Part shown: in pieces, positions 5,525 through 48,220 of the stretch
How the letters are laid out: each line of letters opens with the position of its first letter
Numbering within the stretch: the stretch's first letter is position 1
Source of the DNA: Patescibacteria group bacterium
GTDB lineage: Bacteria > Patescibacteriota > Minisyncoccia > Phycocordibacterales > JAKFXT01
Assembly: GCA_038063555.1 (NCBI GenBank)
Contig: JBBTUX010000018.1
Coordinates: 1-49,545 of the forward strand
DNA: 49,545 nt
Direction: 5' to 3'
The notes under the pieces: generated by a model
Seen by the model: only the letters and a program-made list of their open reading frames with translations
The model's database searches: none
What the model was told of the DNA's origin: nothing
Program-made: the position numbers and the translations under genes

Positions 5525-5658
5525 CCCATTAGAAAGATACTCGCGAAATTATCCACGAGTTACTTTTAAAAAATTTATTATTTCGACTATTTGTCATATT
5601 GCATTATTATTTATCACCGTCGCAGCATCTTCCCTGCCCGTAGCAGGCGGGTAACGGG
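5525..5658. mobile_element. Family A inverted-repeat element abutting the yqeY ATG; right end interrupted by a nested palindrome
   Basis: cat|cccattagaaagat ... atctt[ccctgcccgtagcaggcggg]taacggg. Confidence 0.7.
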
Positions 5659-5717
5659 ACAAGTAGAATCCATTGTAGCTTAAAAACTAAATTGTGAAAA
5701 GATGTTAAAATATCACT

Positions 5718-6776
5718 ATGAGTACGGCGACGATTATTGTTTTGTTTTTGGGGCTGTTATTTTTGATTTCCAACGGTTTTTTGTTTTGGTATATGACTCG
5801 TAAAAAAGAGGAGAAAAAAGAAGATGGGGGAATGCAACTTTTACTACAACAGATGAATGAATTGACCAGAACGGTGGACAGTAAACTTTTGGAAACATCC
5901 AAACAAATGACAGAATCGCTACACAAAACGGGAGAGACAACAGCCAGAATTGTGGGTGATATTACAGAAAAATTGACTCGATTAGATGAAACTAACAAGC
6001 AAGTAATGTCTTTCACGGACCAGCTTCAAAGTTTGCAAGATATTTTGAAAAACCCAAAACAAAGAGGAGTAGTGGGGGAGTATTATTTAGAAACACTTTT
6101 GAAAAATACTATGCCACCGGGGAGTTTTGAAATGCAATATAGTTTTAAAGATGGGGAAATAGTGGATGCCGTTGTATTTGTCAAAGAAAAGATTATTCCC
6201 ATTGATTCAAAATTTAGTTTGGAAAATTATAATAGGATTGTGGAGGAAAGGGACGAAGCGGAGAAAAAGCGATTAGAAAAACTTTTTGTTAATGATTTGA
6301 AAAATAGAATAGTGGAAACTGCCAAATACATTCGTCCTGCAGAAAACACTATGAGTTTTGCTTTTATGTTTATCCCACACGAAGCTATCTATTATGACCT
6401 TCTCATAAATAAAATTGGGGCGGTAGAAGAGAATACAGAAAATCTTATTCAAAGAGCAGCCGGAAAATACAAAGTGATAATAGTTTCGCCGACATCATTT
6501 TTGGCTTATTTGCAGACGGTTTTACAAGGATTAAAAGCAATGCAAATTGAGGAGAAAGTGACTGACGTTATAAAAAGAGTTGGAGAATTGGGTAAGCATT
6601 TAAAAAGTTATGAGGAATATCATTCTAAAATGGGAAATGCGCTTGGCACGGTAGTAAATCACTACAATTCATCTGGCAAAGAATTTAAAAAATTAGATAA
6701 GGATGTTTTGCGTATTAGCGGAGAGAGTATTGAATTTGAAACCGCTTTAATTGAAGGGCCTGACAAAGACGAATAA
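5718..6776 (+). CDS. rmuC: DNA recombination protein RmuC
   Basis: N-terminal TM, KNPKQRGVVGE, IPIDSKFSLENY, FAFMFIPHEAIY, VSPTSF. Confidence 0.9.
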   Translation: MSTATIIVLFLGLLFLISNGFLFWYMTRKKEEKKEDGGMQLLLQQMNELTRTVDSKLLETSKQMTESLHKTGETTARIVGDITEKLTRLDETNKQVMSFTDQLQSLQDILKNPKQRGVVGEYYLETLLKNTMPPGSFEMQYSFKDGEIVDAVVFVKEKIIPIDSKFSLENYNRIVEERDEAEKKRLEKLFVNDLKNRIVETAKYIRPAENTMSFAFMFIPHEAIYYDLLINKIGAVEENTENLIQRAAGKYKVIIVSPTSFLAYLQTVLQGLKAMQIEEKVTDVIKRVGELGKHLKSYEEYHSKMGNALGTVVNHYNSSGKEFKKLDKDVLRISGESIEFETALIEGPDKDE

Positions 6777-6964
6777 AATTTAGACAAAAAAAGGCCGTCG
6801 CACTGCGACGGCCCGGAATGGACACAGCGAGGGGAACCCGACAGTGTCCAATGGCCTCGGCGGAAAGGCAAAACAACCGCCAAGACCATAAACAATAGCA
6901 CCGAGAATAAAAAGAGTAAATATTGCCTTGCCTTATTAACGTTTTTATGTAAAATAGATTTTCT

Positions 6965-7312
6965 ATGGTTGCCAAAAAGAAAGAGCAGAATAAAGATGAA
7001 TTTGCCGTTATAGCAACGGGCGGAAAGCAATACCGAGTATCTGTCGGAGAGATTTTTACTATTGAAAAAATAAAAGGTGATTTTAAGGAGGGAGATAAGG
7101 TAGTTTTTGATAAAGTATTAATGGTTGATAACGGTAAAGACGCTACAATTGGCGCTCCATATATAAAGGAAGCCAAAGTGGAGGCCAAAATTACAGAAAT
7201 AGGTAAACACAAAAAAATAGATGTTGTTAAATATAAAGCTAAGAGTAGATATTTAAAGACCCGTGGCCACAGGCAACCTTTTTTCAAAATAGAAGTTACT
7301 GCCCTAAAGTAA
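6965..7312 (+). CDS. rplU: 50S ribosomal protein L21
   Basis: FAVIATGGKQYRV, GHRQPF. Confidence 0.97.
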   Translation: MVAKKKEQNKDEFAVIATGGKQYRVSVGEIFTIEKIKGDFKEGDKVVFDKVLMVDNGKDATIGAPYIKEAKVEAKITEIGKHKKIDVVKYKAKSRYLKTRGHRQPFFKIEVTALK

Positions 7313-7509
7313 ATAAAAAACGCCCTCCTCCCAAAGGGCATTTCAGTAATCGTAATAGACGAGGGGGAACCATTGAACCGCCCCGGCAAGAAAAGCCAGA
7401 AAAGCAAGCAAAATCAGTCCGTATATACAATGCAGTATGAACCTTGCCATGGCATACTCCTTTTAGGCATATTTCCTATGGTTCGTTATATAACTATTAA
7501 TACACTTTA

Positions 7510-8127
7510 TCAACCTCTGTTCTTAAGAGCATTTTTTAGAGTTTCGCTATCGGAATATTCAACTTCAAGACCGGTGGAGAGGCCGCGACCCAGTGTTGTG
7601 AATTTAATATTTTTATCAAAAACGATTGGTTGAAGCAGGTTCGTGAGATAAAAAACAGTATTTTCTCCTTCAGCGTTAATCCCGAAAGCAAATATTATTT
7701 CCTTCAAGTCCTGTCCTTTCAATTTGACTTCAATGAGTTTGAGTAATTCTTTTTGACGTATCTTTTTTTCAGGTTCTTTTTCTAAAATTGGTATAGAGCC
7801 ACCAAGAATAAAGTAATAACCATTGTAACCACCACTTTTCTCTACCGCTTCAAAGTCCACGTCTTTCTCCACTATCATAAGCAATTCAGAGTTTCTGTTG
7901 GCGTCATTACAGGTTGCGCAAGTCCCTGATTTACTATTGCCGTTGAAGAAGCGCCGACAGCTATCACAAACTTTTATACCTTTTTTAACTTCCTCGATTA
8001 AAGAGACAAGCTCTTCTATGTAATCCTTGTTTCTAGTCAAAAGGAAATAAACAAAACGCCTGGCCTGGCGAGGACCAATTCCCGGGAAATTTTTGAAAAG
8101 AAAGGTTAATTTTTCAAGGGCAGACAT
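7510..8127 (-). CDS. recR: Recombination mediator RecR
   Basis: FPGIGPRQARR HhH, C4 zinc finger, Toprim, EGENT, GLEVEYSD. Confidence 0.95.
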   Translation of the reverse strand: MSALEKLTFLFKNFPGIGPRQARRFVYFLLTRNKDYIEELVSLIEEVKKGIKVCDSCRRFFNGNSKSGTCATCNDANRNSELLMIVEKDVDFEAVEKSGGYNGYYFILGGSIPILEKEPEKKIRQKELLKLIEVKLKGQDLKEIIFAFGINAEGENTVFYLTNLLQPIVFDKNIKFTTLGRGLSTGLEVEYSDSETLKNALKNRG

Positions 8128-8172
8128 TAAGGAAAGAATTAAGAATATAGAATTAAGAATAAGAAAGAGAAA

Positions 8173-9594
8173 TCAAAAATCTTTGGAGTCACTGCTTTCA
8201 TTGAAATTGCCAAAGCCACTTTTATCAATTGGAATAAAGGTGCTTTTCTTGTCATCAAAATATAATTCTATTTTTCCCGTTGGACCATTTCTGTGTTTTT
8301 CTATCATAATTTCGGCAATGTTTATTTTATCCGAATCCTCTTTATATTTATCTTCTCGGTGAATAAACATAACAACGTCAGCGTCTTGTTCAATGGAGCC
8401 AGAATCTCGTAAGTCCGATAGGCGTGGTTTGCCCCCCCGGGATTCGACGGCACGACTCAATTGTGAAAGCGCTAAAACGGGGACATCAAGGTCGCGCGCC
8501 AAGTGTTTCAAAGAGCGAGAAAGTTCTGTTACTTGTTGCACGGCTGAATCAGAGTTTCGGGTGTTAATTGGGGTCATAAGCTGAAGATAATCAACTATAA
8601 TAAGTCCTAGTCCCTTATCCCTTTTCATACGACGCGCGACAGAGCGCATCTTTAAAATATTATTTCCGGGCTGATCATCTATCACAATTGGAGCGCGGGA
8701 AAGCCTGTCCAAGGCGTCTCGTATTTTTTCCGTGTCTTCCGCAAGAGAAAAACGTCCGGTACGTAAATTCCAAGCATTAACGCGGGATTCGGCTGCGAGC
8801 ATTCTTTGAATAAGTTGGTCACTACTCATTTCAAGTGAAAAAATACAAACAGGGGTATTGTGGAGAGTGGCAGTTTGGCGGGCGATATCCAAAGCAAGAG
8901 CGGTTTTACCCATGGAAGGACGCGCCGCTAAAATAACCAAATCTGATTTTTGAAGTCCCGCTAATTTATCATCCAATTCTCGAAAACCAGTTCTAATACC
9001 ACGGATCTCATCTTTATTGTGATGCAATCGCTCCAAGTGTTCCCAAATTCCCGGAAGGGCATCTTTTAAATCAATAAATTTTTTAACCCCGCCGTGGTTG
9101 GTGAGTTGATACAGTTCGTGTTCGGCTTTTTCTAAAAGCATTTCTAATTCTTCCGTTTCATCATAACCAAGAGAGTTGATTGATTCAGCCGCTCCGATTA
9201 ATTGACGCATCATAAATTTGCGATGCACTATTTCTGCATAATGGCGAATATTGGCAGCCGATGGTGTGGTATTTATCAAATCTGCTAAATAACTGGTTCC
9301 TCCAGTTTGTTCCAAAAAACCCTTTTCTTTTAAACGCGAAGAAAGGGAAAGAAGATCTATAGGTTCACTTTTCGAAAAGAGGTTCAACATTCCTTGCCAA
9401 ATAAGACGGTGTTTCTCCACGTAAAAGGTCTCTGCGTTTATTAGATCTATGACATCAATTATGGCGTCGGGGCGAAGCATCACAGAGCCAAGGAGAGCGC
9501 GTTCGGAATCTATGTTTTGTGGCGGCACACGTAAAACGGAAGAGGGAACGGGGGAGTGAGAAATTTTCTTTTTTTGATAGTTGGAGGAATCCAT
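8173..9594 (-). CDS. dnaB: Replicative DNA helicase
   Basis: PPQNIDSERALLG, AARPSMGKT, VDYLQL, LSQLSR, DLRDSGSIEQDAD; start at MDSSNY. Confidence 0.97.
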   Translation of the reverse strand: MDSSNYQKKKISHSPVPSSVLRVPPQNIDSERALLGSVMLRPDAIIDVIDLINAETFYVEKHRLIWQGMLNLFSKSEPIDLLSLSSRLKEKGFLEQTGGTSYLADLINTTPSAANIRHYAEIVHRKFMMRQLIGAAESINSLGYDETEELEMLLEKAEHELYQLTNHGGVKKFIDLKDALPGIWEHLERLHHNKDEIRGIRTGFRELDDKLAGLQKSDLVILAARPSMGKTALALDIARQTATLHNTPVCIFSLEMSSDQLIQRMLAAESRVNAWNLRTGRFSLAEDTEKIRDALDRLSRAPIVIDDQPGNNILKMRSVARRMKRDKGLGLIIVDYLQLMTPINTRNSDSAVQQVTELSRSLKHLARDLDVPVLALSQLSRAVESRGGKPRLSDLRDSGSIEQDADVVMFIHREDKYKEDSDKINIAEIMIEKHRNGPTGKIELYFDDKKSTFIPIDKSGFGNFNESSDSKDF

Positions 9595-9725
9595 CCTGTA
9601 GTGAGAAATGGCATCGCTTCTTTTTAGAAGCAAGTTGACCAAATTTTAGTTAATTTTATTAAATTCAACCTTTCTGTTCTAATTTTTGATTGGGTTATCA
9701 TCATAATGCCATTTTCTACTACGGG
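9595..9725. mobile_element. Family A element (131 bp) abutting the dnaB ATG, flanked by a 6-bp direct repeat ATCCAT
   Basis: atccat|cctgtagtgagaaatggcat...atgccattttctactacggg|atccat. Confidence 0.85.
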
Positions 9726-9869
9726 ATCCATTGCAAACATTGTATCACGCTAAATTGGTCTCGTTAAAAATTTTAAAAAGAGGAAAAAATGGGGAAAAGA
9801 CAGAAAAACTTGTCAACTTTTAATTATTATTATATAAAACTATACAACGGTACAAATAGGGGATGTCGA

Positions 9870-36109: not shown

Positions 36110-36112
36110 GGT

Positions 36113-37842: not shown

Positions 37843-37911
37843 CAGTTGCAACCCGAGGATGGAAAGTGAGTAAATCACTCTCCATCCTCATCTTTTTTTA
37901 AATTAAAAACA

Positions 37912-38232: not shown

Positions 38233-38357
38233 TTTCAGACATTACTTTCTCGTTCATTACGATTTTATTTAGATATCATATATTACATCTGTAATACGGG
38301 TTGTTTCAGCAATCCCCCTATTATCTATTATTTAGCTGTGAAATGCGGAGAAGGTCG

Positions 38358-38853: not shown

Positions 38854-38907
38854 ATTAGTATAATATCAGATATACAGATTTTCTGCAAATCCGTATAGGC
38901 CCTTAAC

Positions 38908-39594
38908 TTACCTAACTAGCTTTAGTAGTTCTGCAATTCTAGGCATTACTTTCTCGTTCATTATAGTTTTATATTGGTGATAATTATCTATTTTATTGGG
39001 AAACAATTCATCGGGATAAATTGGTTTGCCGAAAACTAATTTCAAATGTTTTTTGAATAAGAAGAAATCTATTAAATTTGCTTGATGTACCCCTATTATG
39101 GCAACAGGAACAATAGGTGTATTTGTTCTGTGGGATAAGAAAGCTGCTCCTCCTTTGAATTCATGCAATTTTCCATCAAAACTTTTGTCTCCCTCTGGAA
39201 AAATTAAAACTGAACTTCCTTTCTCTAGGAGTTTTATATGATAAGGTAAAGACAAATTGTAATCATGCAAACCAATTTTTGCTGGATAGGCCCCCCAAAA
39301 TTTAAAGAAAATACCTCCATAAAAAATTCTCTTGAGCATTCTTTTCAAATTATAAAAAGACGGTTCTCGAGAAACATAAAAAACGGGTAAAAATCTGGAA
39401 AATAAAGGAAATGAAGCCGGCAAAAGTATGGGATCAAGTTCACTAGTATGATTGCTGACAAATATAACAGACCCCTTCAAATCTTTTAGATTTTCTAGTC
39501 CATAAACCTTAAAGTGACCGAAAAATCTTAAAAATATTTGCGTTGGTACCCAAATCAAGTTTTGTAGAAAAAAAGGTATGAATGAAGGAAGCAT
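38908..39594 (-). CDS. plsC: Lysophospholipid acyltransferase (PlsC family)
   Basis: SNHTSELD, IFPEG, FKGGAA, PIVPV. Confidence 0.85.
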   Translation of the reverse strand: MLPSFIPFFLQNLIWVPTQIFLRFFGHFKVYGLENLKDLKGSVIFVSNHTSELDPILLPASFPLFSRFLPVFYVSREPSFYNLKRMLKRIFYGGIFFKFWGAYPAKIGLHDYNLSLPYHIKLLEKGSSVLIFPEGDKSFDGKLHEFKGGAAFLSHRTNTPIVPVAIIGVHQANLIDFFLFKKHLKLVFGKPIYPDELFPNKIDNYHQYKTIMNEKVMPRIAELLKLVR

Positions 39595-39597
39595 GTT

Positions 39598-40071
39598 TTA
39601 TGATTGATTGAGTATGAAAAGCAGTGACAAGAGTCCCCCCAAAGTCCACCAAAAAAGTATATTGGGAATTTCCAAAAGTTTGGCAATTGAAGGAAGATTG
39701 GAAATTATGAAATCTTTATTTATATAAGTTGCTAGAGTTGTGATTAAAAGGCCAGAGAGAACTGCGGTTATCAAAGCCCCTTCAAATACTTTGGGAAGTG
39801 GATTCCAAGGAAAAACAACGGACACCGCCTTACGAACGACAATGTAAACAACAAGTAAAATTATTACAAATAATAAAACTTTGGCTATTTCAGCGCTTGT
39901 TGAACTTTTAGCAAAAGAGAAAAAATTATCGGTAAATGGAATCCTATCATATAGAAAAGCGGATATGGGTATTGAAAAAATAACTGAAATTCCCACACTT
40001 TTCCCGAAATACATAAGGGATAAAAGGACTATGACAAGAAAAACAGCAATACCAATAACATCAAGTGTCAT
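39598..40071 (-). CDS. Hypothetical membrane protein
   Basis: Four to five TMs. Confidence 0.65.
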   Translation of the reverse strand: MTLDVIGIAVFLVIVLLSLMYFGKSVGISVIFSIPISAFLYDRIPFTDNFFSFAKSSTSAEIAKVLLFVIILLVVYIVVRKAVSVVFPWNPLPKVFEGALITAVLSGLLITTLATYINKDFIISNLPSIAKLLEIPNILFWWTLGGLLSLLFILNQS

Positions 40072-40120
40072 GGGTATATTTTACTATAAAATTTGCTTTA
40101 ATTCTTGTATTTTTCCCCAA

Positions 40121-41194
40121 TTACATCCCCTCTTTACGTAAATCTTCTAGAAGTTTTTTGGATTCTTTAGATATTTTTTGTGGAATCGCGATATTTACTT
40201 TTATCAACAAATCTCCCCTATGATTTTTTTCATAAGGCACTCCGCGCCCCTTTACTCTTAGCACTTCGCCATATGCTATTCCCGCTGGAATAGAAACAGT
40301 AAGAGGTCCTTCTAAAGTGCTAACTTTATAATCTGCTCCTAAAAGGGCGTCCGTAAGTTTAACAGAAATGGTTGTTATTAGATTATTACCGTCTCTAGTC
40401 AAAGTTTGATGTTTTTTGACATGAATTCGAACGTATAAATCACCCGCTACCCCATTGGATGATGCTTCTCCCTTTTGGGTTAAACGTATAACTTCCCCAT
40501 GGTCAATTCCAGGAGGCACAGCAATAGTAATTTCTTCCTGTCTTTTCAAAATTTTTTCTCCACGACAAACATTGCATTTTTCCTTTGGTGTTTTACCAAT
40601 ACCCGCGCAAGTGTCGCATTGGCGAGTAACACTTACTGAACCAAAAAAGGAGCGGCGGTTCTCACGGATTTTCCCATTTCCATTACACATCTTGCATTTT
40701 TCCATTGTTGTTCCTGGTTTTCCACCGCTTCCTTTACAAACTTCACAAGTTGATAATTTTGATATGAGAACTTTCCTTTCAACGCCAAAAATACTTTCAT
40801 CAAAAGAAAGTTCCAAATCTATGGAAATATCACGACCGCGATTTACCCTCTCTCGTCCTCCTCCAAAAAAATCTCCAAATATATCCCCTAAATCCTCTGT
40901 ATTTATGTTCCCAAATCCTTGTCCAGAAAAATTACTGAAATCAAAACCGTTAAAACCAGAAAACCCTCCGCCAGCATTACCTCCTTGAAAAGTTTGTCCA
41001 TAGGCGTCATATTCGGCTCTTTTTTTCTCATCGGACAAAACCGCGTAAGCCTCACTGACTTCCTTAAATTTACTACTGTCACCACCCTTTTTATCGGGAT
41101 GATACTTATGAGCCATTCTATGAAAAGCTCTCTTTATATCTTCTTTACTGGATCCTTTTTCCACCCCCAACACATTGTAGTAATTTTTAGCCAT
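40121..41194 (-). CDS. dnaJ: Chaperone DnaJ
   Basis: HPD J-domain, G/F region, four CxxCxGxG-type repeats. Confidence 0.97.
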   Translation of the reverse strand: MAKNYYNVLGVEKGSSKEDIKRAFHRMAHKYHPDKKGGDSSKFKEVSEAYAVLSDEKKRAEYDAYGQTFQGGNAGGGFSGFNGFDFSNFSGQGFGNINTEDLGDIFGDFFGGGRERVNRGRDISIDLELSFDESIFGVERKVLISKLSTCEVCKGSGGKPGTTMEKCKMCNGNGKIRENRRSFFGSVSVTRQCDTCAGIGKTPKEKCNVCRGEKILKRQEEITIAVPPGIDHGEVIRLTQKGEASSNGVAGDLYVRIHVKKHQTLTRDGNNLITTISVKLTDALLGADYKVSTLEGPLTVSIPAGIAYGEVLRVKGRGVPYEKNHRGDLLIKVNIAIPQKISKESKKLLEDLRKEGM

Positions 41195-41265
41195 AGCTTA
41201 GAAAGTTTATTATTTTAATGAAGTGTTTTTATTATATGATTTCATTACTTTATTTCAAGTTTTTT

Positions 41266-43158
41266 CTATTTAGTTTCAGCGTCTCTAATCGGACCATTCT
41301 CCCCGCCATTGTTATCTTTATTATCAGTAGTTTGTCCCTGATTTTCCCCTTGTTTTTGCATGGCTTCGCCTATTTTGGAAAGTTCTTGGGACAGTGTCTC
41401 TAGGGCTTCTTTTAAACCAACCCCGCTATCTTTATTCTTTTTAAGTTCAGCAATTTTACTCTCTATGCTTGTCTTCAAATCAGCAGAAACCTTATCCCCC
41501 GCATCTTTCAGTGACTTCTCGGCCACATATATGAGTTGCTCAGCTTGATTTTTAAGTTCAATTTCTTCTTTTTTCTTTTGATCTTCTGCGCTATGCACTT
41601 CAGCTTCTTTCTTCATTCGCTCAATGTCGACATCCGTTAATCCTGATCTGGCTTCTATTCTTATAGACTGCTCTTTACCGGAAGCTTTATCTTTTGCTTT
41701 TACTTGCAAGATTCCATTAACATCCACATCAAAGGTGACTTCTATTTGAGGCATACCGCGAGGACTAGGTGGTATTCCATCCAAAATGAATCTACCCAAA
41801 CTTTTATTATCGCTCGCCAATGGGCGTTCACCCTGCGTGATATGTATTTCAACTGAAGTTTGATTATCCGCCGCAGTAGAGAAAACTTGCGATTTGCTTG
41901 CCGGTATATGAGTGTTTTTTTCAATCAAGTGAGTGGAAACACCGCCTAATGTTTCTATACCAAGAGAAAGCGGTATAACATCCAATAGCAAAACATCTTT
42001 AACGTCTCCTTGAAGAATTCCGGCTTGAATGGCCGCTCCAATCGCCACCACTTCATCGGGATTAATAGTTTTGTTCGGCTCCTTGCCAAAAAGTTTTTTA
42101 ACAGCTTCTTGTATAGCTGGCATTCTAGTTTGTCCACCAACCAAGATAACTTCATCAATTTCAGAAAACGACAATTTAGAGGCCTCAATAGCTCTTTTGC
42201 TAATTTCAATGGAACGCTCTATGAAAGGCGCCGTTAATTCTTCAAGTTTGGCTCGGCTTAATTTCATTAGTAAGTGTTGTGGACCAGAAGCGCCAGAAGT
42301 TATAAAGGGAATATTTATTTCTGTCTCAACTGTAGTTGACAATTCGTGCTTAGCTTTTTCAGCTGTTTCATCTAACCTCTGCACAGCTAAAGGATCATTT
42401 AAGACATCGATTCCGCTTTCTTTTTTAAATTCCGAGGCAATAAAACGCATTACAGTTTGGTCTATGTCGCGTCCACCAAGATGTGAGTCGCCATCGGTCG
42501 ACTTGACTTCTATAGTGTCATTGCCTTCGCTGTCATGAATAACTTCTAAAATTGAAATATCAAAAGTCCCACCGCCAAAATCAAAGACCGCAATCTTTTC
42601 ATTTTTCTTTTTGTTAAATCCGTAAGCTAAAGCGGCGGCCGTTGGTTCATTTATGATTCTCTTCACATCTAGGCCTGCGATAGCGCCGGCGTCTTTTGTG
42701 GCCTGTCTTTGAGCATCATTAAAATAAGCCGGAACTGTAATAATAGCTTCTGTTATTTTTTCTCCAAGCTTACCTTCGGCATCAGCTTTTAATTTTTGTA
42801 AAATGAGGGCTGATATTTGTTCTGGAGTAAACCAGTTTCCGCCAAGTTGCGCTTTGACTCCTCCATTATCACTTTTCTCTATTTTATACGGAGCATTTTT
42901 CTTATCTTTTTGAACTACCTCCTCGTCGAAAGAGTGACCGATAAAACGTTTTATTCCATAAACGGTATTGCTTGGATTTGTAACCGCTTGCCTTTTGGCA
43001 AGTTGACCAACCAAACGTTCATTGGCCTTAGAAATGGCTACAATCGATGGGGTAGTACGAGTTCCTTCTACGTTTTCAATAATACGTGGCTCACCTCCCT
43101 CTATAATAGCCATGGCTGAATTTGTTGTTCCCAAATCAATTCCTAATATTTTTGACAT
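41266..43158 (-). CDS. dnaK: Chaperone DnaK
   Basis: [30 protein letters not shown]; start at MSKIL. Confidence 0.98.
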
Positions 43159-43329
43159 ATGATTAATTTTTAAGGAGTGGTAACGACTATAAAAATCATC
43201 ACCCAGCACCTTTTAAATTGTTAAATTATTACCTTTTTATTTTGTTTAATGATAGACATGTTACTTAATAAATTTATTTATTGCAATAAGGTGCGGGGTC
43301 CTCAAAAAATATAGTCGCTCTACTCCTTA
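43159..43329. repeat. Family B element between grpE and dnaK
   Basis: Imperfect inverted repeat taaggagtggtaacgactata...tatagtcgctctactcctta; similar to 47408-47584. Confidence 0.75.
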
Positions 43330-43937
43330 TTTTTTGGGAAATATCCAACTATTACTTTCGCCGGTTGAATAACCTTTCCTTTTTGTAAAAATACTGGAGA
43401 AAGAACTTTCGTTATTCTATGGTCTTTTTCTAGGTCCGCAACCTCTTCCTCTCCCACCGCTTCATGCAAATTTGGGTCAAAAAATTCATTTATTGACTCT
43501 TTGATTTCAAGTCCGCGGTTCTCTAGCACCTTCATTAATTGACTATATATGTATTCAACCCCTTGACGCCAGTTTAACGGCACTTCTTCCCATCTTTTTT
43601 TATCAGCCATAGCGGCGCTAAAACTTGAAAGGACTGGTAAAATATCTTTTATCAGAGAACTTTCAGCAAAAGAGACGAAACTCTCTTTTTCAGTGGCAAG
43701 TTCCTTTTTTGAGTTTATAAAATCAGCTTTGCTTCTTTGCCAACCTGAAAGATATTCCGATTTCTCTTTTTCACAATTTTTTAATCTTTCTCTAAGTTCA
43801 CGAAGTTTTTTGTTGGCATTAATATCGCCTTCTTCGCCCTCTTCTAAAATAAGCTCATTTCCCGCGCTGTTATTATTAACCACCGCTTCATCTCCGTTAA
43901 GTTTTTTTTCGTTTTTTGTGTCTTTTTTAAAAATCAT
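43320..43937 (-). CDS. grpE: Nucleotide exchange factor GrpE
   Basis: WQRSKADFIN.KK, FDPNLHEAV, VIQPAKVIV. Confidence 0.93.
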   Translation of the reverse strand: MIFKKDTKNEKKLNGDEAVVNNNSAGNELILEEGEEGDINANKKLRELRERLKNCEKEKSEYLSGWQRSKADFINSKKELATEKESFVSFAESSLIKDILPVLSSFSAAMADKKRWEEVPLNWRQGVEYIYSQLMKVLENRGLEIKESINEFFDPNLHEAVGEEEVADLEKDHRITKVLSPVFLQKGKVIQPAKVIVGYFPKNKE

Positions 43938-43997
43938 AGGGAAAAATATTATTTTTCTAAAAACCAGCCGCAAAGTCAAGCGGGTAAATAATCCACT

Positions 43998-44414
43998 CTA
44001 ACGCTTGCTCCATTGAGGCGCTTTTCTGGCCTTTTTAAGACCAAATTTTTTACGTTCTTTCGCTCTTGGGTCTCTTTTAAGGAAACCGGCGTGTTTTAAT
44101 TCTGGTCTTAAATCTGAATTTAAATCTATAACGGCTCTCGCTATACCGTGTCTTATGGCGTCAGCTTGAGCGGCAATGCCCCCTCCTAAAACCTTGACTG
44201 AAACAGACATAGAATTGTTTAGAGACGCTTTCTTTAGAGATTCTAAAGCTATGTGTTGATGCTCCTTTAAGTGAAAGTAATCAGAAAGTTTTTTGCCGTT
44301 TATAACAAAAGTCGGTTTTGAGTTTTTAGATATGCGAACTCTGGCTATAGCGGTTTTACGACGACCAATGCCTTCTATATATTTATCTTCTTTTGTTTTT
44401 TTGTTTGTATCCAT
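43998..44414 (-). CDS. rpsI: 30S ribosomal protein S9
   Basis: GRRKTAIARV, GGG..AQA, RDPRAKERKKFGLKKARKAPQWSKR; alternative start 44438. Confidence 0.97.
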   Translation of the reverse strand: MDTNKKTKEDKYIEGIGRRKTAIARVRISKNSKPTFVINGKKLSDYFHLKEHQHIALESLKKASLNNSMSVSVKVLGGGIAAQADAIRHGIARAVIDLNSDLRPELKHAGFLKRDPRAKERKKFGLKKARKAPQWSKR

Positions 44415-44443
44415 ATTTTTAATATTCGACTTTATCATAAATT

Positions 44444-44791
44444 TTATTCAGAAACACTTAGGTTCTTAAGCATGGAACTCCTGTGTTTATTTTTAGGAAG
44501 CATACGAGACACAGCGTGGCGAATTAATTCCTCTGTCCCTTTTTGCGATTTAATAATTTTAGCCGTTTTCTGCTTCATTCCGCCAGGATATCCTGAGTAT
44601 CTCGTGTGTGTTAATTCTTCCAATTTACGGTCCGTAATTGAAAGTTTGGAAGCATTTATTATTTTTACTTTATTATTGGGAAACAAGTTTTTACGAAAAG
44701 TCGTAACATTTTTACCCATAAGAATTATGGCCACCTTGCTTGCAAGGCGTCCCAATTTTTGTTCTGTGGCATCTATGGTTTGTTCTTTCAC
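44444..44791 (-). CDS. rplM: 50S ribosomal protein L13 (GTG start, or ATG 44869 inside the element)
   Basis: IDAT...LGRLAS, INASK, YSGYPGG, AV..MLPKN. Confidence 0.95.
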   Translation of the reverse strand: MKEQTIDATEQKLGRLASKVAIILMGKNVTTFRKNLFPNNKVKIINASKLSITDRKLEELTHTRYSGYPGGMKQKTAKIIKSQKGTEELIRHAVSRMLPKNKHRSSMLKNLSVSE

Positions 44792-44891
44792 CCCGTTAGA
44801 GATATGTCCCTTTTCATAAAAGGTTTGATTTATACTAATTTTATTGGATTTTAATTTATTTGTTTCCATAATTTACAGTTTCTCTAACGGG
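44792..44891. mobile_element. Family A element (100 bp) abutting the rplM GTG
   Basis: cac|cccgttagaga...tctctaacggg, perfect 11-bp terminal inverted repeat (TIR). Confidence 0.8.
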
Positions 44892-44911
44892 TCGCCACGC
44901 TTGTTAAATTT

Positions 44912-45262
44912 CTAAACAAATTCAATAACAGCCCTCTCGCTACTGTCACTTTTTCTGATTGGTAATTTAATTATACGGGTGTAACCTCCATTTCTTTTTT
45001 CAAAACGTTTAGCCGTTTCAAAAAGTTTGCTTATAGAAGAATCGTTACTACCTAGACGTGATTGTAGCAATCTCCTTGTTGCTAGAGTATCACTTTTTGC
45101 TTTAGTAATTAACTTCTCAATAATAGGACGAATTTCTTTGGCTTTAGCCAAAGAGGTTTCCATTCTTTGTCTTAGAATAAGAGTGCGTGACAAAGACCTT
45201 AGCAAGGCCTTTCTTTGATTGTCTTCTCTGGCGAAAGCTCGACCTTTTTTGTGATGTCTCAT
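44912..45262 (-). CDS. rplQ: 50S ribosomal protein L17
   Basis: MRHHKKGR, AKAKE, RNGGYTRIIK. Confidence 0.97.
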   Translation of the reverse strand: MRHHKKGRAFAREDNQRKALLRSLSRTLILRQRMETSLAKAKEIRPIIEKLITKAKSDTLATRRLLQSRLGSNDSSISKLFETAKRFEKRNGGYTRIIKLPIRKSDSSERAVIEFV

Positions 45263-45316
45263 ATGTTTTCTTAAGTAAATGTTTGATTAAACAAATATAA
45301 TCACTTTGCTCTTTAT

Positions 45317-46276
45317 TTATTTTAACCCTATGCCGAAACCAGCCAAGGCCTTTTTAATTTCTTGCATTCCTTTACTACCCAATCCATCAATATCCAAAAT
45401 ATCCTCTTCTCTTTTACGAGCTAAACCGCCAAGAGTTCTGATATTAGCGGCATTTAGCGCATTTACCGTTCGAGGAGAAAGGTCCATAGTTTCAATTCTG
45501 GTTTTGAGCAATTCAGGGTCAATCAATTGTTTGATTTCTTTTGAAGCCACAACCTCTTCTTTGACTGGAAGGTCATAATCTTCCTCCTTAAAACCAACTA
45601 TGGACCTCAACTGATTAATCATTATTTCAATTGATTTTTCCAATGCCTCATGGGGCGTAATTATTCCATCGGTCTCTATAAATATTTTTAATCTATTAAA
45701 GTCAGTTCTGTCTCCGACACGCATATTTTCAACTTCATAATTAACGCGACGAATCGGGGTAAAACTTGCGTCAAGGGCTATGGCGCCAATTTCAACACGA
45801 TCTTTCTGTATATTTTCTTTGGAAACGAAGCCTATACCTCTTTCCACTCTCATTTCCGCCTCAAAGGAAGAGTTCTTTTCGGTTAAAGTCGCTATGTACT
45901 GGTCTTTGTTTATTATTTCAACTTGACCAGGCGCCTTTATGTCAGAGGCCTCAACCTTTTTGTTTCCTTTGACAGAAATAGTCAAAGTTTGAGGTTCATC
46001 GGTTAGCATTTTGATGCGAATTCTTTTCAGATTCAAAAGCACCGTCACCATGTCTTCTTTGATTCCGGAAATAGTGGAAAATTCATGACCAACACCGTCA
46101 ATTTTCACATTGGTTATAGCGGCGCCCGGCAAAGACGAGAGTATTATGCGTCTTAAAGAGTTTCCCAAAGTGTGGCCATAACCAGGGTAAAGGCCATCTA
46201 TTTCATAGGTTCCGCTGGTTGCGCTTTCTTCCACAACCTTTGGCTTTGACGGCAAAATAACGTTTATTTCTGACAT
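45317..46276 (-). CDS. rpoA: RNA polymerase alpha subunit
   Basis: GYGHTLGNSLRRIILSSLPG, HEFSTI.G.KED, RVGDRTDF, alpha-CTD. Confidence 0.98.
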   Translation of the reverse strand: MSEINVILPSKPKVVEESATSGTYEIDGLYPGYGHTLGNSLRRIILSSLPGAAITNVKIDGVGHEFSTISGIKEDMVTVLLNLKRIRIKMLTDEPQTLTISVKGNKKVEASDIKAPGQVEIINKDQYIATLTEKNSSFEAEMRVERGIGFVSKENIQKDRVEIGAIALDASFTPIRRVNYEVENMRVGDRTDFNRLKIFIETDGIITPHEALEKSIEIMINQLRSIVGFKEEDYDLPVKEEVVASKEIKQLIDPELLKTRIETMDLSPRTVNALNAANIRTLGGLARKREEDILDIDGLGSKGMQEIKKALAGFGIGLK

Positions 46277-46332
46277 ATTTTAAAAATTAATAATGAATAA
46301 TATTTTACAACAAAATATAATAATAATCAAAC

Positions 46333-46941
46333 CTAACGACTATAAAATTCCAAAACCGGAGAAAGGTCAAAATGAAGCCCTGTTCTTTGATAAGGCGGGC
46401 TCTCTTTTATAGTTCCCTCCCCCTTTTTAGGGTCAAATAAAACCCAATTTGGGGTTGCGTGTTCTTTCAATCTTTCTTCAAGATTTGCAAAAAGAACACT
46501 TTTCTTACTGCCTTCGCGTATTTTCACCAGGTCTCCAATTTTTACATTCATCGAAGGAATCGTTACTCTGGTTCCGTTTAAGGTAATGTGGCCGTGAGAA
46601 ACTATTTGTCTTGCCAGACGTCTTGTCGAAGCAAGTCCCATACGATAAACAACATTGTCTAATCTTTGTTCAAGCATTTGATAAAGATAGTCAACTGGCT
46701 TGATATTTTTTACATCATTGGCTTTGATTATGTAGTTTTTAAATTGCTTCTCCATGATGCCATAGGTATAACGAACTTTTTGTTTTTCCAAAAATTGTTT
46801 GGCGTAATCACTGCGCGCTCCGCGACGTCTTTTGCTTTTACCGCTACGCGCTTCCGAAAGCGCAAACTTTTGCGTTTGACATTTTTCAAAAACACCAGCG
46901 CCCAATCTTTTTCCTATTTTATATTTTGGTCCTACTATCAT
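46333..46941 (-). CDS. rpsD: 30S ribosomal protein S4
   Basis: EKQKVR..YG, LEQRLDNVVYR, ARQIVSHGH, EFYSR. Confidence 0.98.
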   Translation of the reverse strand: MIVGPKYKIGKRLGAGVFEKCQTQKFALSEARSGKSKRRRGARSDYAKQFLEKQKVRYTYGIMEKQFKNYIIKANDVKNIKPVDYLYQMLEQRLDNVVYRMGLASTRRLARQIVSHGHITLNGTRVTIPSMNVKIGDLVKIREGSKKSVLFANLEERLKEHATPNWVLFDPKKGEGTIKESPPYQRTGLHFDLSPVLEFYSR

Positions 46942-46972
46942 ATATTTTATTAATTAATGGGTCGTTAAATTA

Positions 46973-47407
46973 CTAAATACGTCTTGGTTTTTTAGCTTTT
47001 GGTCCATTGTGAGGCATTGGTGTAATGTCTTTTATAGAAAGTAAACCTATGCCTTTACTGCTAAAAGCTCTAACCGCCGCTTCTCTGCCCGCTCCTACTC
47101 CTTTTATTACTACGTCTACATTTTTAACACCAATAGCAGAACCTTTTTCACCAATCAATTCACCAACTTTTGCCGCCGCAAAGGGAGTCCCCTTTTTGGC
47201 ACCAGTAAACCCAAGGGATCCACTGGAAGAGGCGCAAACAGCATTGCCACTTTTATCAGTCAAAAGAACACGCGTATTGTTGTAAGTTGATTCAACGTAA
47301 AGTATACCGACATCTATTCTTTTTTTTGCGGCTTTGGCAAGAGATTTTGCTCGAAGACCTTGGTCCACCTCGCCGCCTGATTTTGAAGCTATTCGTTTTT
47401 TACCCAT
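46973..47407 (-). CDS. rpsK: 30S ribosomal protein S11
   Basis: STYNNT, GFTGAKKGTPFAA, DITPMPHNG; start at MGKKR. Confidence 0.97.
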   Translation of the reverse strand: MGKKRIASKSGGEVDQGLRAKSLAKAAKKRIDVGILYVESTYNNTRVLLTDKSGNAVCASSSGSLGFTGAKKGTPFAAAKVGELIGEKGSAIGVKNVDVVIKGVGAGREAAVRAFSSKGIGLLSIKDITPMPHNGPKAKKPRRI

Positions 47408-47584
47408 ATGGTTGATTTTTAATGAACGATAAGCGACTATAAAAATCACCATCCCGCCCCACTTCGACGGACATTGAGTTATTGCTTATTCGGTTTTTGT
47501 GATTTTGATTAGTCATATTTATGTTATTTGTTGTTTCTGTAAAAGTGGAGCGGGATAATTAAAATATACTCGTTACACTCCTTA
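47408..47584. repeat. Family B element between rpsM and rpsK
   Basis: Shares cgactataaaaatca and start-proximal sequence with 43159-43329; far end cgttacactcctta. Confidence 0.75.
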
Positions 47585-47590
47585 TTTTAA

Positions 47591-47971
47591 TTATGTTTTT
47601 TCTACCGCGCGACGACCTGAACCCATAGTTTTTCTGACATTGCCACGAACGGTGCGGGTGTTGGTTTTGGTTCTTTGTCCCCTTGTTGGCAAATGTTTAG
47701 AGTGACGATTCCCTCTATAAGATTTGATGTCTTTTAGACGTTTAATATTTGAGGCCACACTGCGACGGAGATCTCCCTCTATTTTTAAATTCTCAAGCAA
47801 AGTTTTTATAGAGTTTTCTTCTTCGGTAGTTAAATCTTTTGTTTTTTTAGAAATATCTATCTTTGCATTATCTAGAATAGAACGAGCGGTAGAAATTCCG
47901 ATTCCAAAGAGAGCGGTCAACGCATACTCAATTCTTTTGTTTTCTGGAAGTGTTATACCTACAATACGCAT
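47591..47971 (-). CDS. rpsM: 30S ribosomal protein S13
   Basis: MRIVG, ALT.LFGIG, IEGDLRR, YRG.RH..LPTRGQRTKTN. Confidence 0.98.
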   Translation of the reverse strand: MRIVGITLPENKRIEYALTALFGIGISTARSILDNAKIDISKKTKDLTTEEENSIKTLLENLKIEGDLRRSVASNIKRLKDIKSYRGNRHSKHLPTRGQRTKTNTRTVRGNVRKTMGSGRRAVEKT

Positions 47972-47982
47972 AGAAATTTATA

Positions 47983-48096
47983 TTAACCTTGTCTTTGTTT
48001 ATGTTTAGGATTCGCGCAAATAACATTAAGACGGCCTTTTCTGCGAATCATTTTGCACTTAGCGCAAATTACTTTTACGGAAGTTCTTACTTTCAT
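47983..48096 (-). CDS. rpmJ: 50S ribosomal protein L36 (not in ORF track)
   Basis: [37 protein letters not shown]. Confidence 0.97.
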
Positions 48097-48220
48097 CCCG
48101 TTAGAAATAGGAAACGCGCTTTGGCGCGTTTCCGCAACTTAATTGATAACATTCTCCAAACAATATCGGTAATTTATTTTGTAACTGTGTATATAACATA
48201 ACATTGTGATTTCTAACGGG
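48097..48220. mobile_element. Family A element (124 bp) abutting the rpmJ ATG
   Basis: tttcat|cccgttagaaat...atttctaacggg|attcat; 12-bp TIR; 5/6 flanking direct repeat. Confidence 0.85.

Follow-up and report, generated by a model that had tools for sequence, protein, structure and literature searches.

Start-codon-abutting inverted-repeat elements in a patescibacterium and a GIY-YIG nuclease gene as their probable autonomous form

Six inverted-repeat elements in a stretch of 49,545 nucleotides from a Patescibacteria group bacterium (contig JBBTUX010000018.1; hereafter "the window") end exactly at the start codons of six housekeeping genes. They are non-coding, MITE-like copies of 100–134 nt, and the account to which we incline is that a selfish nuclease gene of ~280 bp, leading a life at start sites, is the autonomous form of a family of which these six are MITE-like members. 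A nuclease gene parked in this way is widespread in ultra-small groundwater bacteria, and its lifestyle seems to be undescribed; the literature searched yielded no description of the start-codon rule, in line with the first-pass annotation of the window, which knew of no such system.

The six elements of the window

Reading of the six sites located all six elements and bore out their reported ending at start codons, with the frame corrected to the minus strand, on which all the window features mentioned here lie: in gene orientation the 3′ end of the element directly adjoins the ATG (GTG for rplM), while on the plus strand a CAT (CAC at rplM) comes before each element. Pfam confirmed the host products (YqeY, DnaB, ScpB, TrpS, L13 and L36) and, since the profiles begin at residues 1–6 of these proteins (24 for DnaB), the abutting codons are real starts; the orthologues in the congener G004 begin at the same codon.

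Arms of the CCCGTTAGA/TCTAACGGG type are found at rpmJ, rplM and yqeY. The rpmJ element (48097–48220; 124 nt, class A) has perfect arms of 14 nt, CCCGTTAGAAAT at its 5′ and ATTTCTAACGGG at its 3′ end in gene orientation, and adjoins the ATG of the gene for L36 (47980–48096; 37 aa; PF00444, profile positions 1–38). An upstream ORF of 41 codons (48101–48226) runs from the ATG of the 5′ flank, where ATGAAT (48221–48226) is a direct repeat of the host ATGAA, to a TAA that precedes the rpmJ ATG by 4 nt, the chance of such a read-through being 0.06 with a shuffled interior. The rplM element (44792–44891; 100 nt, arms CCCGTTAGAGA/TCTCTAACGGG) has TGGCGA as its 5′ flank, in which the start codon is not repeated, and adjoins the GTG of the L13 gene (44444–44791); the mechanical ORF list prolongs this gene into the element (141 aa). 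The yqeY element (5525–5658; 134 nt), of a subclass with the 5′ end CCCGTTACCCGCCTGC and with CCCGTTACCCGCC as its 5′ arm, lies between the hexamer ACTTGT (5659–5664) and the ATG of yqeY (5051–5524). At scpB (28326–28898) the ATG is adjoined by a decayed class A element (28899–29010; 112 nt) with a degenerate 3′ arm, whose 5′ hexamer ACTTGC comes just behind the scpA stop codon.

The dnaB and trpS elements, both of 131 nt and class B, have arms of the CCYGTAGT.../...ACTACRGG type, 20–23 nt long. The former (9595–9725) is flanked by ATGGAT upstream (9726–9731) and by the ATGGAT of its host (8173–9594) downstream, with a TGATACAAT box at a distance of 7 nt upstream from the 5′ repeat; the mechanical ORF list prolongs dnaB to a TTG within the element. 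The latter (32068–32198) adjoins the ATG of trpS (31081–32067), and its 5′ hexamer ACCTGT (32199–32204) does not match the host start.

The base-paired stem at the AUG that had been proposed from the first is predicted for four of the six elements, whose terminal stems exceed those of shuffled sequences (z −5.3 for rpmJ, −4.0 for dnaB, −3.1 for rplM and −3.0 for yqeY, the AUG itself being included in the predicted yqeY stem), but not for scpB (z −1.5) and trpS (z −0.8), which are no better than shuffles.

Junctions, empty sites and flanking repeats

Throughout the 672 kb genome to which the window belongs (G000), a start codon, counted when it opens an ORF of at least 35 codons, is found at offset 0 from 25 of 128 arm occurrences, and at offset 1 from one more, compared with 1.28% of 20,000 random positions, a frequency beyond chance. 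Doubt attaches to two of the 25 matches, one a tandem element and the other a GTG ORF of 50 codons, and scpB stands outside them because of its degenerate arm. In both class A and class B the orientation of insertion is strictly specific. That all long copies obey the rule, as originally stated, does not hold genome-wide: C8:3361–3482 adjoins an ATG without a long ORF, C8:33385–33570 and C7:18855–18954 adjoin no start codon, and members of a symmetric subclass are found either 7 nt ahead of ATGs or elsewhere between genes. The junction rule itself is confirmed, the window elements adjoining true start codons.

The alignment of orthologous loci in search of empty sites had been named beforehand as a test. 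When 25 G000 loci were compared with G004 (two others being left out because they gave no BLAST match), 23 proved empty, with an intact start codon and no element, one was filled by an element of another class having the same ATGAAT flanks, and one was uninformative. In G004 all six window sites are empty, rplM has an ATG start, trpS has a TAGGAT box 6 nt ahead of its ATG, and the scpA stop and the scpB ATG are just 5 nt apart; the infA–rpmJ site is empty also in G006 and G003. These data show that the elements are mobile DNA, gained or lost between congeners.

The same comparison bears on the reading of the elements as conserved 5′ leaders or regulatory stems of housekeeping operons, similar to the leaders of ribosomal-protein type, rather than insertions. 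The essential nature of the genes that they precede, the significant stems of four out of six and the conservation of the 3′ arm together with the ATG among families of the order would all suit such leaders; nevertheless, the same element is found before unrelated genes, no Rfam family matches the elements at the gathering threshold or at E ≤ 5, and the empty sites at 23 of the 24 informative loci refute this reading, to which we accord next to no credence.

The suggestion that the element "targets or supplies" initiation codons came close to the truth, in that about half of the copies carry on their 5′ side a direct repeat of the host ATGNN. This repeat always begins at the ATG and is 3 to 8 nt long (the 8-nt case being in G029); the fifth base of the element start agrees with its counterpart in the host at 41 of 44 loci, a value reached in 0 of 10,000 permutations, and all nine copies flanked by ATGGAT or TTGGAT, as read from the listings, precede ATGGA starts, which are those of about 87 of 691 genes. 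On the other hand, some ten G000 copies, including those of trpS, yqeY and scpB, have a 5′ hexamer ACYTGY that does not match the host start, and three have ATTTAT, two of these mismatching it; since such hexamers are also missing from the empty sites, simple target duplication does not fit those copies. Furthermore, ATGRA is about equally common off starts (297 intergenic occurrences versus 258 at starts), so that, if sequence preference and host selection acted alone, insertions away from starts should be more numerous than the few observed.

The surrounding genomic context is leaderless-rich and SD-poor: TAnnnT is most frequent at −12 relative to gene starts (99 of 689 genes versus about 22 at other positions), a peak also found before full-length elements (11 of 47), and SD cores are rare (peak of 20).

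A nuclease gene between the same termini

Relatives carry, within the termini of the elements, an ORF of 269–278 nt coding for a GIY-YIG nuclease of 92–95 aa that starts at the ATG of the 5′ flank (MNPVR...) and ends in ...SLTG-TGA, the TGA overlapping the host ATG (ATGA). The junction, first regarded as a property of a bare MITE, would be inherited from this coding parent. Intact ORFs of 92–95 aa between these termini occur in G024, G025 (two), G029 and G011, and the four submitted to Pfam (all but the second G025 copy) match PF01541 with E values of 2.5e-16 to 3.3e-14. The nearest solved relatives are the UPF0213 proteins 1zg2 and 1ywl and the SLX1 homologue 7wme, the nuclease consisting of the catalytic domain only, of a UPF0213/SLX1-like branch. 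At E ≤ 1e-5 there are 3,427 matching protein clusters, and confirmation was obtained for 516 of 578 genome stretches; among the best 80 loci across Patescibacteria the TGA overlaps an ATG or GTG opening an ORF of at least 50 codons in 56. Ten of these 56 loci were tested and gave eight Pfam families, with profiles beginning at residues 1–6 in eight and sortase and glycosyltransferase domains lying further in; the hosts being of many kinds, the "safe site in essential operons" of the first-pass annotation is too narrow a description. The median dN/dS of 0.15 (367 pairs of 35 nuclease ORFs) and a third-position identity of 0.87 and 0.84 at the two ORF ends versus 0.58 in the middle show that the ORF is under purifying selection and that its ends are conserved beyond coding needs. 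Strong matches to the nuclease profile are found in 10 of 12 genomes with the arm+ATG pattern versus 2 of 19 without it, a co-occurrence with some circularity in it, the counted pattern being itself a part of full-length copies. The one intact arm-bearing gene of G000 (C2:49352–49627) is missing at the orthologous start in G004.

Of the window elements, only the rpmJ type can be traced by homology to the nuclease gene beyond the arms, having in common with full-length copies ~30 nt of the 5′ and ~24 nt of the 3′ end; the yqeY, scpB and rplM elements share with it only the 8–11 nt termini, and for the class B elements of dnaB and trpS the likeness is confined to related termini and the flank rule, 31 genomes having yielded no coding form of this class. 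In 7 of 14 short ATG-flanked class A copies the upstream ORF reaches −7 or +1 of the host ATG, as against 1.02 expected with shuffled interiors.

Given that ATGNN repeats are found in about half of the copies and that the genomes are leaderless-rich and SD-poor, a selfish gene hijacking host signals appears to be the best reading. A unit bounded by inverted repeats of 10–11 nt (CCCGTTAGAGA ... TCTCTAACGGG) lies directly 5′ of the host start codon, having on its 5′ side ATGNN+T, usually a repeat of the first five bases of the host; this flank would give the nuclease ORF its start codon together with the initiation signals of the host, often a leaderless-type −10 box 6–7 nt upstream. At the 3′ end of the ORF (...ACG GGA TGA) the stop is made from bases 2–4 of the host ORF (ATGA), and the host gene would then be translated via termination–reinitiation. 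Copies with internal deletions (100–134 nt) would keep the termini, and therefore the exact junction, and would have multiplied as short elements, many of them retaining an open upstream ORF that ends 4 nt before, or overlaps, the host ATG. The nuclease may move the elements, possibly by acting on the inverted repeats as a structure; the ATGNN repeat might be a target duplication or reflect a homology requirement at ATGAA/ATGGA, and confinement to real starts might result from target preference plus selection on host and element. Reinitiation cannot explain the expression of all hosts, since half of the short class A upstream ORFs stop early and those of class B stop 29–132 nt before the host ATG.

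It is also conceivable, though quite improbable, that there is no targeting at all, the nuclease genes homing between alleles, the short elements having decayed in place and the start rule being a mere footprint. Homing endonuclease genes classically go through invasion, decay and loss in a cycle, several short copies retain both gene ends and an open frame, and one host start bears different classes in G000 and G004. Yet eight class B copies (129–135 nt) align over their full length and the rpmJ copy has two full-length counterparts elsewhere in the genome, these three being 75–81% identical end to end; such alignments between different starts imply that short elements multiplied as such. They also leave only partly right the statement that the interiors are mostly unrelated. 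The initial description of non-autonomous, multi-copy elements bounded by inverted repeats is supported. In addition, G000 has 17 arm+ATG pattern matches versus its single intact gene. As interiors and deletion breakpoints are common to short copies at different genes, decay in place could account at most for single copies such as that of scpB.

Mobilising enzymes and known systems

Candidates for the mobilising enzyme are the GIY-YIG nuclease and the products of five Y1 transposase genes. We know of no way for a 94-aa hydrolytic nuclease to integrate DNA, and this counts against the nuclease as the mover. One of the five Y1_Tnp genes of G000 lies in the window (48646–49329; IS200/RAYT-like, HUH, 227 aa; PF01797, E 1.5e-9) and is a candidate alternative mobiliser; 90–170 nt upstream of it are two short hairpin repeats sharing the termini of the elements (CCCGTTAGAGG...CTCTAATGGG; 49419–49494), the first preceded by ACTTGT. 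Another Y1 gene is followed by a GTTAC-CCCGTAG...CTACGGG-GTAAC hairpin. Y1 transposases could thus move the elements single-stranded, in the manner of REP/REPINs or IS200/IS605-PATEs, with the GIY-YIG ORF as a passenger; insertion would occur in one orientation, directly 3′ of an antisense ...CAT (that is, exactly 5′ of ATG), without target duplication and with a fixed right-end hexamer (ACARGT or ATTCAT on the antisense strand). The strict orientation of both classes agrees with this, as do the ACYTGY copies, which arrived with their hexamer and without duplication, and the GTAG/GTTAG beside the stem in the element arms, REPs having the same motif next to their stem. We nevertheless hold this explanation to be rather unlikely. 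Four genomes with the arm+ATG pattern or class B arms (G004, G011, G016 and G006; completeness 95–99%) gave no Y1 match, and three with 4–5 Y1 genes (G007, G021 and G028) gave no pattern match; each Y1 gene has a different GC-rich hairpin of its own directly beside it; with the NCBIfam RAYT model (REP_Tyr_transpos) the Y1 protein of the window reaches 38 bits, under the 80-bit cut-off; and a fixed right end does not explain why the hexamer follows the host start (41/44) or the 8-nt repeat of G029. Moreover, known REPs lie at the 3′ ends of genes.

With the overlapping stop/start (ATGA) coupling and termination–reinitiation known from textbook operons, the nuclease gene shares an ORF whose stop is either a TGA that overlaps the host ATG or a TAA situated 4 nt ahead of it; unlike an ordinary upstream cistron, it is a mobile insertion whose stop codon is supplied by the host gene. 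Bacterial MITEs, such as the Correia elements of Neisseria and the RPEs of Rickettsia, are likewise short, multi-copy, non-coding and bounded by inverted repeats, and the resemblance extends to co-transcription with genes, stem formation and derivation from a longer coding element with the same termini; here, however, the parent is something other than an insertion sequence with a DDE transposase, and insertion is orientation-specific, exactly at start codons, with a flank repeat of 3 to 8 nt from the ATG.

Free-standing GIY-YIG homing endonuclease genes (on which see PMC2988022) include the seg genes of T4 and the mobile GIY-YIG ORFs that are joined in frame to fungal mitochondrial genes at their ends. 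The likeness lies in a selfish GIY-YIG gene that stands outside any intron, between host genes or up against one, that orthologous sites may have or lack, that uses neighbouring expression signals and that is often decayed. The present gene differs in being a bare 94-aa catalytic domain without a DNA-binding domain for a long homing site, in having terminal inverted repeats and proliferating non-coding derivatives, and in occurring at many genes per genome, always at the start codon, with the ATGNN repeat and the ATGA overlap.

To REPINs with their RAYTs and to the IS200/IS605-derived PATEs (PMC3337134; bioRxiv 10.1101/2022.05.22.493013) the elements are similar in their hairpin repeats, GTAG-like feet, orientation-specific insertion and copies without target duplication, and in the presence of Y1 genes, one beside short hairpins of the same termini. 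Membership among the REPINs, as first proposed, is nonetheless doubtful: the arms are 80–110 nt apart instead of forming a tight doublet, the elements lie at the 5′ starts and not the 3′ ends of genes, the five Y1 genes have each a different flanking hairpin, and elements occur also in genomes without a detectable Y1/RAYT gene. Finally, the non-intron insertion sequences in the rRNA genes of CPR bacteria encode GIY-YIG proteins, are scattered over sites and were judged, in the passages used of PMC11270868, not to have spread by classical homing. Those insertions lie inside rRNA genes, and the same passages make no mention of inverted-repeat termini, start codons or short derivatives; with the start-codon elements they have in common the phylum, the protein family, the non-intron nature and the scattering over sites.

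Position of the elements relative to the start codons

The host genes of all six elements lie on the minus strand and, on the plus strand, CAT (CAC in the case of rplM) directly precedes the first base of each element. Pfam confirms the identity of the six products as YqeY, DnaB, ScpB, TrpS, L13 and L36, and the profiles begin at residue 1–6 (24 for DnaB) of the proteins, so that the codons abutting the elements are the true starts. Mechanical longest-ORF calls overrun into the elements in the case of dnaB (8173–9642, 489 aa) and rplM (44444–44869, 141 aa), a warning to annotators that automatic annotation of such genomes may misplace starts. The termini are of two types, class A (CCCGTTAGA...TCTAACGGG) being found at rpmJ, rplM and scpB and, in a variant with the 5′ end CCCGTTACCCGCC, at yqeY, and class B (CCCGTAGTAGAAAATGGCAT ... 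GATGCCATTTTTCACTACAGG) at dnaB and trpS, where the arms are 20–23 nt long. The arms (terminal inverted repeats) measure 8–14 nt in class A and 20–27 nt in class B, that of scpB being degenerate, and enclose about 80–110 nt of AT-rich sequence predicted to be largely unpaired. Folded as RNA in gene orientation, the terminal stem beats shuffled sequences in four of the six elements (z = −5.3, −4.0, −3.1 and −3.0) and is no better than the shuffles in scpB (z −1.5) and trpS (z −0.8). Since the Rfam search, both at gathering threshold and at E ≤ 5, returned two tRNAs and chance-level matches, none of them on the elements, readings of the latter as ribozymes, riboswitches or leaders were dropped.

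In the genome to which the window belongs (G000; 672 kb, 38% G+C, 20 contigs, the window being contig C18), 25 of the 128 arm occurrences on both strands have, at offset 0, a start codon with 35 or more codons open behind it, as against 1.28% of 20,000 random positions, and one more has it at offset 1; two of the 25 are doubtful, one being a tandem element and the other a GTG frame of 50 codons. The exact abutment on start codons reported by the first-pass annotation is therefore real and highly non-random. Of 31 related genomes, 12 contain a 12-nt “arm + ATG” pattern, with copy numbers from 1 to 20 (17 in G000); the reversed control pattern gives counts of 0 or 1. Long G000 copies without an adjoining gene start are few, and a symmetric subclass, flanked by ATTTAC...GTAAAT-like hexamers, is located elsewhere in intergenic DNA. 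Four symmetric elements of 95–101 nt (CCCGTTAGATATTA...AATTATCTAACGGG; C6:20324–20424, C11:8928–9022, C12:6798–6892 and C12:7313–7407) are followed by GTAAAYT and then by ATG, which thus lies exactly 7 nt downstream and represents a second fixed spacing to starts.

The first-pass annotation had regarded the elements as insertions, and the alignment of orthologous loci in search of empty-site alleles had been set beforehand as the test that could refute this. Twenty-five G000 loci were compared with the full genome of G004, the nearest congener, ~75–85% identical to G000 in genes, two further loci being left out for lack of a usable match. At 23 of the 25, G004 has no element and keeps the start codon; one is filled there and one is uninformative, the match falling on a repeat. 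None of the six window sites is occupied in G004, and the infA–rpmJ spacer, 138 nt long in G000, measures 2 to 7 nt in three other genomes (G003, G004 and G006). Since the orthologous sites are empty, the elements are insertions and not conserved leaders, and the test leaves the original reading unrefuted on this point. The filled locus is the start of a 785-codon gene (G000 C2:57725–57855, G004 C2:31604–31715), where one genome has a class B element and the other a class A element, with identical ATGAAT flanks, the outcome of either a hot spot or a replacement. Contigs from four DNA runs (groundwater metagenomes where the organism is recorded), compared with positions 28500–48400, include many with rpmJ arms and other interiors or flanks; none of these contigs, which cannot show rare variants, bridges an empty site cleanly. 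Tandem arrays, in the order class A, ATGGAT, class B, gene, occur in G000 (C3:26302–26582) and in G024 (loci L068, L069 and L071), and in one hybrid from G024 a 5′ arm of class B is combined with a 3′ end resembling that of class A; these cases suggest insertion beside resident copies and recombination between classes.

A GIY-YIG nuclease gene within the same termini

The start-codon rule has its origin in a very small nuclease gene whose overlap with host starts is widespread among Patescibacteria. None of the six window elements encodes a GIY-YIG domain, and the coding parent was traced by following to its end the frame opened at the ATG of the 5′ flank. At five loci in four further genomes belonging to the order (two in G025 and one each in G024, G029 and G011) the same termini enclose 269–278 nt forming a single open frame of 92–95 codons, ATG AAT CCC GTT AGA (MNPVR) ... 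CTA ACG GGA TGA, the TGA of which coincides with bases 2–4 of the host gene (ATGA). All four copies submitted to Pfam match GIY-YIG (E 2.5e-16 to 3.3e-14) over residues 10–77, that is to say over the catalytic domain alone in a protein of 92–95 aa, and its closest relatives of known structure are an SLX1 homologue and two UPF0213 proteins (1zg2 and 1ywl); the parent is a nuclease of the small, structure-specific GIY-YIG branch and not of the I-TevI type with its DNA-binding domain.

The family, a very large one, takes in 3,427 protein clusters from Kaiserbacteria, Paceibacterota and other Patescibacteria at E ≤ 1e-5, under the names “putative endonuclease” or “GIY-YIG nuclease family protein”. 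In a one-genome-per-species collection at least 516 of 578 pattern matches were confirmed, and among the best 80 loci, those inspected for the junction, 56 have a stop codon that overlaps an ATG or GTG with 50 or more codons open behind it; as to the other loci of these 80, the next start is 3–15 nt downstream in 11 and none was found in 12, contig ends cutting some. The host genes at ten of the 56 loci belong to eight Pfam families (RuvX, Xth-like, sortase, sugar nucleotidyltransferase, epimerase, glycosyltransferase, ABC-2 and histidine phosphatase), a diversity indicating that the nuclease gene has no fixed partner, and in eight of the ten the profile begins at residue 1–6, so that the overlapped ATG is there the real start. 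The nuclease ORF has a median dN/dS of 0.15 (367 pairs, 35 ORFs) and is thus under purifying selection; furthermore, third-position identity is 0.87 and 0.84 at the two ends of the ORF versus 0.58 in its middle, which means that the ends are constrained as nucleic acid beyond what the protein demands. A full-length element of G011 (L085) displays 76% DNA identity across genera (G011, G005 and G000) and, in the five genomes searched for an empty site, was matched without its host flanks, which have diverged too far for a match, a pattern consistent with recent horizontal spread. Close relatives of the nuclease are also found on contigs of genomes labelled Desulfobacteraceae, Omnitrophica, TA06, Planctomycetes and Syntrophales (L112, L133, L143, L157, L160, L162 and L165), owing to either transfer out of Patescibacteria or binning errors.

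The only intact arm-bearing copy in G000 (C2:49352–49627, arms CCCGTACGAAA/TTTTGTACGGG) has a TGA that overlaps the ATG of a 420-codon gene and occupies a site that is empty in G004. The rpmJ element has ~30 nt in common with the full-length copies at the 5′ end and ~24 nt at the 3′ end, and two further short copies of it, 75–81% identical, are present in G000; eight class B copies align end to end, and no coding version of this class was found in the 31 genomes. Homology at the ends, together with the existence of copies related over their whole length, indicates that the short elements are probably deletion derivatives that have multiplied as short elements, an origin shown by sequence comparison for the rpmJ type and inferred for the others from their common termini and common flank rule. 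The MITE-like nature attributed to the elements at the outset is borne out by their inverted repeats, non-coding body, many related copies and presence/absence, and proved incomplete in that the coding GIY-YIG parent had been missed.

Flanking sequences and translation of the host genes

In gene orientation, the base preceding the 5′ arm is T, rarely C, and the five bases before it fall in two states. About half of the copies have on the 5′ side a direct repeat of the host ATGNN, 3 to 8 nt in length: ATGGAT/ATGGAT in dnaB, ATGAAT/ATGAAA in rpmJ and, in other cases, ATGTAT/ATGTAT, ATGAGT/ATGAGA and, once, ATGAGTAAT/ATGAGTAAG. The second state, seen in about 13 copies (trpS, yqeY, scpB and about ten more), is an AYYTRY hexamer (ACTTGT, ACCTGT, ACTTGC or ATTTAT) unrelated to the host start and missing from the empty site, so that it must have arrived with the element or overwritten the site later. 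Hexamers of this type are also present on both sides of the symmetric subclass and before a short hairpin near the transposase gene of the window, and their origin may lie in gene conversion from symmetric repeats or in transport within the mobile unit. The fifth base on the element side is that of the host in 41 of 44 loci, a score reached by none of 10,000 permutations in a set in which 36 of the 44 hosts start with ATGAA; likewise, copies flanked by ATGGAT or TTGGAT stand, on inspection by eye, before ATGGA starts in nine cases out of nine, compared with ~87 of 691 genes having such a start. ATGAA/ATGGA is all that the insertion sites have in common and orientation is fixed, every copy following ...CAT on the antisense strand and the far-end hexamer covarying with the target.

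In G000 ATGRA occurs 297 times in intergenic DNA versus 258 times at gene starts; preference for the pentanucleotide and loss of gene-disrupting insertions do not fully explain the existence of ~25 start-abutting copies and so few others. The bias towards starts may be strengthened by selection on the element, only copies behind a working start being expressed; since the non-coding copies fall outside such selection, some direct targeting cue may also be at work.

TAnnnT peaks at −12 of the gene starts of G000 (99 of 689 genes versus ~22 at other positions), where Shine–Dalgarno cores are rare (peak 20). Many genes are therefore probably leaderless, with the A of the ATG as transcription start, and the motif counts suggest that leaderless or SD-less initiation is of major importance in the organism. 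The TAnnnT box lies 6–7 nt before the ATG at several empty sites, those of trpS and dnaB included, and precedes the element's own ATG in 11 of 47 full-length elements. An insertion accompanied by the ATGNN repeat would keep the upstream ATG as far from the promoter as the host start had been; ribosomes would first translate the nuclease ORF, or what is left of it, and would terminate on the host ATG or 4 nt ahead of it, where they could reinitiate. The frame starting at the flank is open to −7 or +1 of the host ATG in 7 of 14 short ATG-flanked class A copies, against 1.02 expected from shuffled interiors, the three G024 copies among the seven being mutually related. On the other hand, the class B frames stop 29–132 nt early, half of those of class A likewise end too soon, and the AYYTRY copies lack any upstream ATG; reinitiation leaves these copies unexplained, so that translation of their hosts must use some other route, perhaps direct entry, an internal promoter or processing of the RNA at the stem. 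An outward promoter in the 3′ arm was rejected, no TAnnnT being seen by eye at the right distance from the ATG, and so was a conserved class B peptide, the frames from the 5′-flank ATG ending at differing places. Essential genes of these leaderless-rich, SD-poor genomes tolerate 100–280 nt inserted exactly at their start, and reinitiation or leaderless initiation becomes directly testable in an uncultivated phylum.

Mobilization and comparison with known systems

The nuclease, as the only gene within the termini, is a candidate for the activity that moves the elements, and strong matches to its profile occur in 10 of the 12 genomes having the arm + ATG pattern versus 2 of the 19 without it, a comparison that is partly circular; a hydrolytic nuclease alone, however, cannot integrate DNA. 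The other candidates are the Y1 (IS200/RAYT-like) transposases, which would insert the element 3′ of ...CAT on the antisense strand, a type of enzyme that the fixed orientation and the duplication-free AYYTRY copies would suit. G000 has five Y1 genes (48646–49329 of the window, minus strand; C6:30905–31510; C6:33921–34604; two copies on C16), and upstream of that in the window, at 90–170 nt, are two short CCCGTTAGAGG hairpins having the same termini as the elements. Yet each Y1 gene has its own, differing GC-rich hairpin just upstream (49341–49392 in the window), often with related sequence at the 3′ end; the element-bearing genomes G004, G011, G016 and G006 give no Y1 match, whereas G007, G021 and G028 have 4–5 Y1 copies and no arm + ATG pattern. 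Overall, Y1 is present in 9 of the 12 genomes that show the pattern, against 7 of the 19 that do not, and the window protein scores 38 bits with the NCBIfam RAYT model, the cut-off of which is 80.

Two further systems were considered and rejected: integron attC sites, because the core and inverse-core motifs would be in the wrong order (by eye, against the consensus), and a tyrosine-recombinase core site, whose arms would surround a 6-bp overlap of a circular junction, because G000 has a single PF00589 gene and the AYYTRY flanks do not fit. The window also contains, at 32296–32562 on the minus strand, an 88-aa ArsR-type HTH gene with a perfect 42-nt palindrome in front of it (32588–32629) and another palindrome at about 32295–32325. 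At the corresponding position G004 lacks the ~600-nt block that comprises this gene and the trpS element, and copies of the gene exist elsewhere in G004 and at no fewer than four places in G002; from its distribution the block looks like another small mobile or duplicated cassette. A role of the HTH product in binding the arms was discarded, its own palindromes being unrelated to them.

The elements are regarded here as a variant on known kinds, namely a free-standing homing-endonuclease gene and its MITE derivatives. A bolder reading, which we consider a serious possibility though somewhat short of probable, is that they represent a new, minimal autonomous GIY-YIG element that integrates at start codons, mobilizes copies in trans, repays its host by reinitiation and ranks among the commonest selfish elements of Patescibacteria. 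Such an element, of ~276 bp including the inverted repeats, would encode nothing but an SLX1/UPF0213-like nuclease and have neither start nor stop codon of its own; its integration would be specific for start codons, in many cases at the +1 position of a leaderless gene, and a 5-nt ATGAN duplication would supply the ATG upstream and the TGA downstream. The element would thereby capture the transcription and translation start of the host, to be repaid through reinitiation, and the nuclease, acting on the cruciform or hairpin of the repeats, would mobilize the non-coding copies in trans.

Full-text literature searches turned up no account of GIY-YIG genes or inverted-repeat elements associated with start codons; the nearest report concerns insertions, other than introns, that encode GIY-YIG proteins and lie within rRNA genes of this phylum (PMC11270868), and elsewhere a GIY-YIG protein is merely listed among transferred genes (PMC12455944). 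The sequence rule would find its explanation in a concrete and testable form of parasitism, a gene borrowing the start signals and even the stop codon of its host; ultra-small bacteria have thousands of unexplained ORFs annotated as “GIY-YIG nuclease family protein”, which may be linked to mobile DNA, and a 94-aa nuclease that would recognize a defined pair of repeats could have practical interest.

As to known systems, the longer coding element with the same termini that is expected of a MITE exists for class A of the rpmJ type; as to a target duplication of fixed length, about half of the copies have an ATGNN repeat of 3 to 8 nt and about 13 have AYYTRY. REPINs consist of paired REP hairpins which, separated by a short spacer, form one long hairpin; here the arms are ~80–110 nt apart, a departure from that design, although short hairpins of 30–35 nt with the same termini also occur, and the co-occurrence of REPIN and RAYT across genomes breaks down, elements being present in G004, G011 and G016 without a Y1 match. 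IS200/IS605 elements (including PATEs) insert in one orientation, without duplication and on the 3′ side of a constant tetra- or pentanucleotide; in the present elements orientation is fixed, but the far-end hexamer tracks the target. With free-standing GIY-YIG homing genes they have in common an intact catalytic domain, found in the full-length relatives and in the G000 copy on C2, but homing endonucleases possess a DNA-binding module for a long site, whereas Pfam detects here the catalytic domain and no such module. Finally, the ATGA stop/start overlap of translationally coupled gene pairs is also seen here, in the same 56 of the best 80 loci, and reinitiation would be predicted from it.
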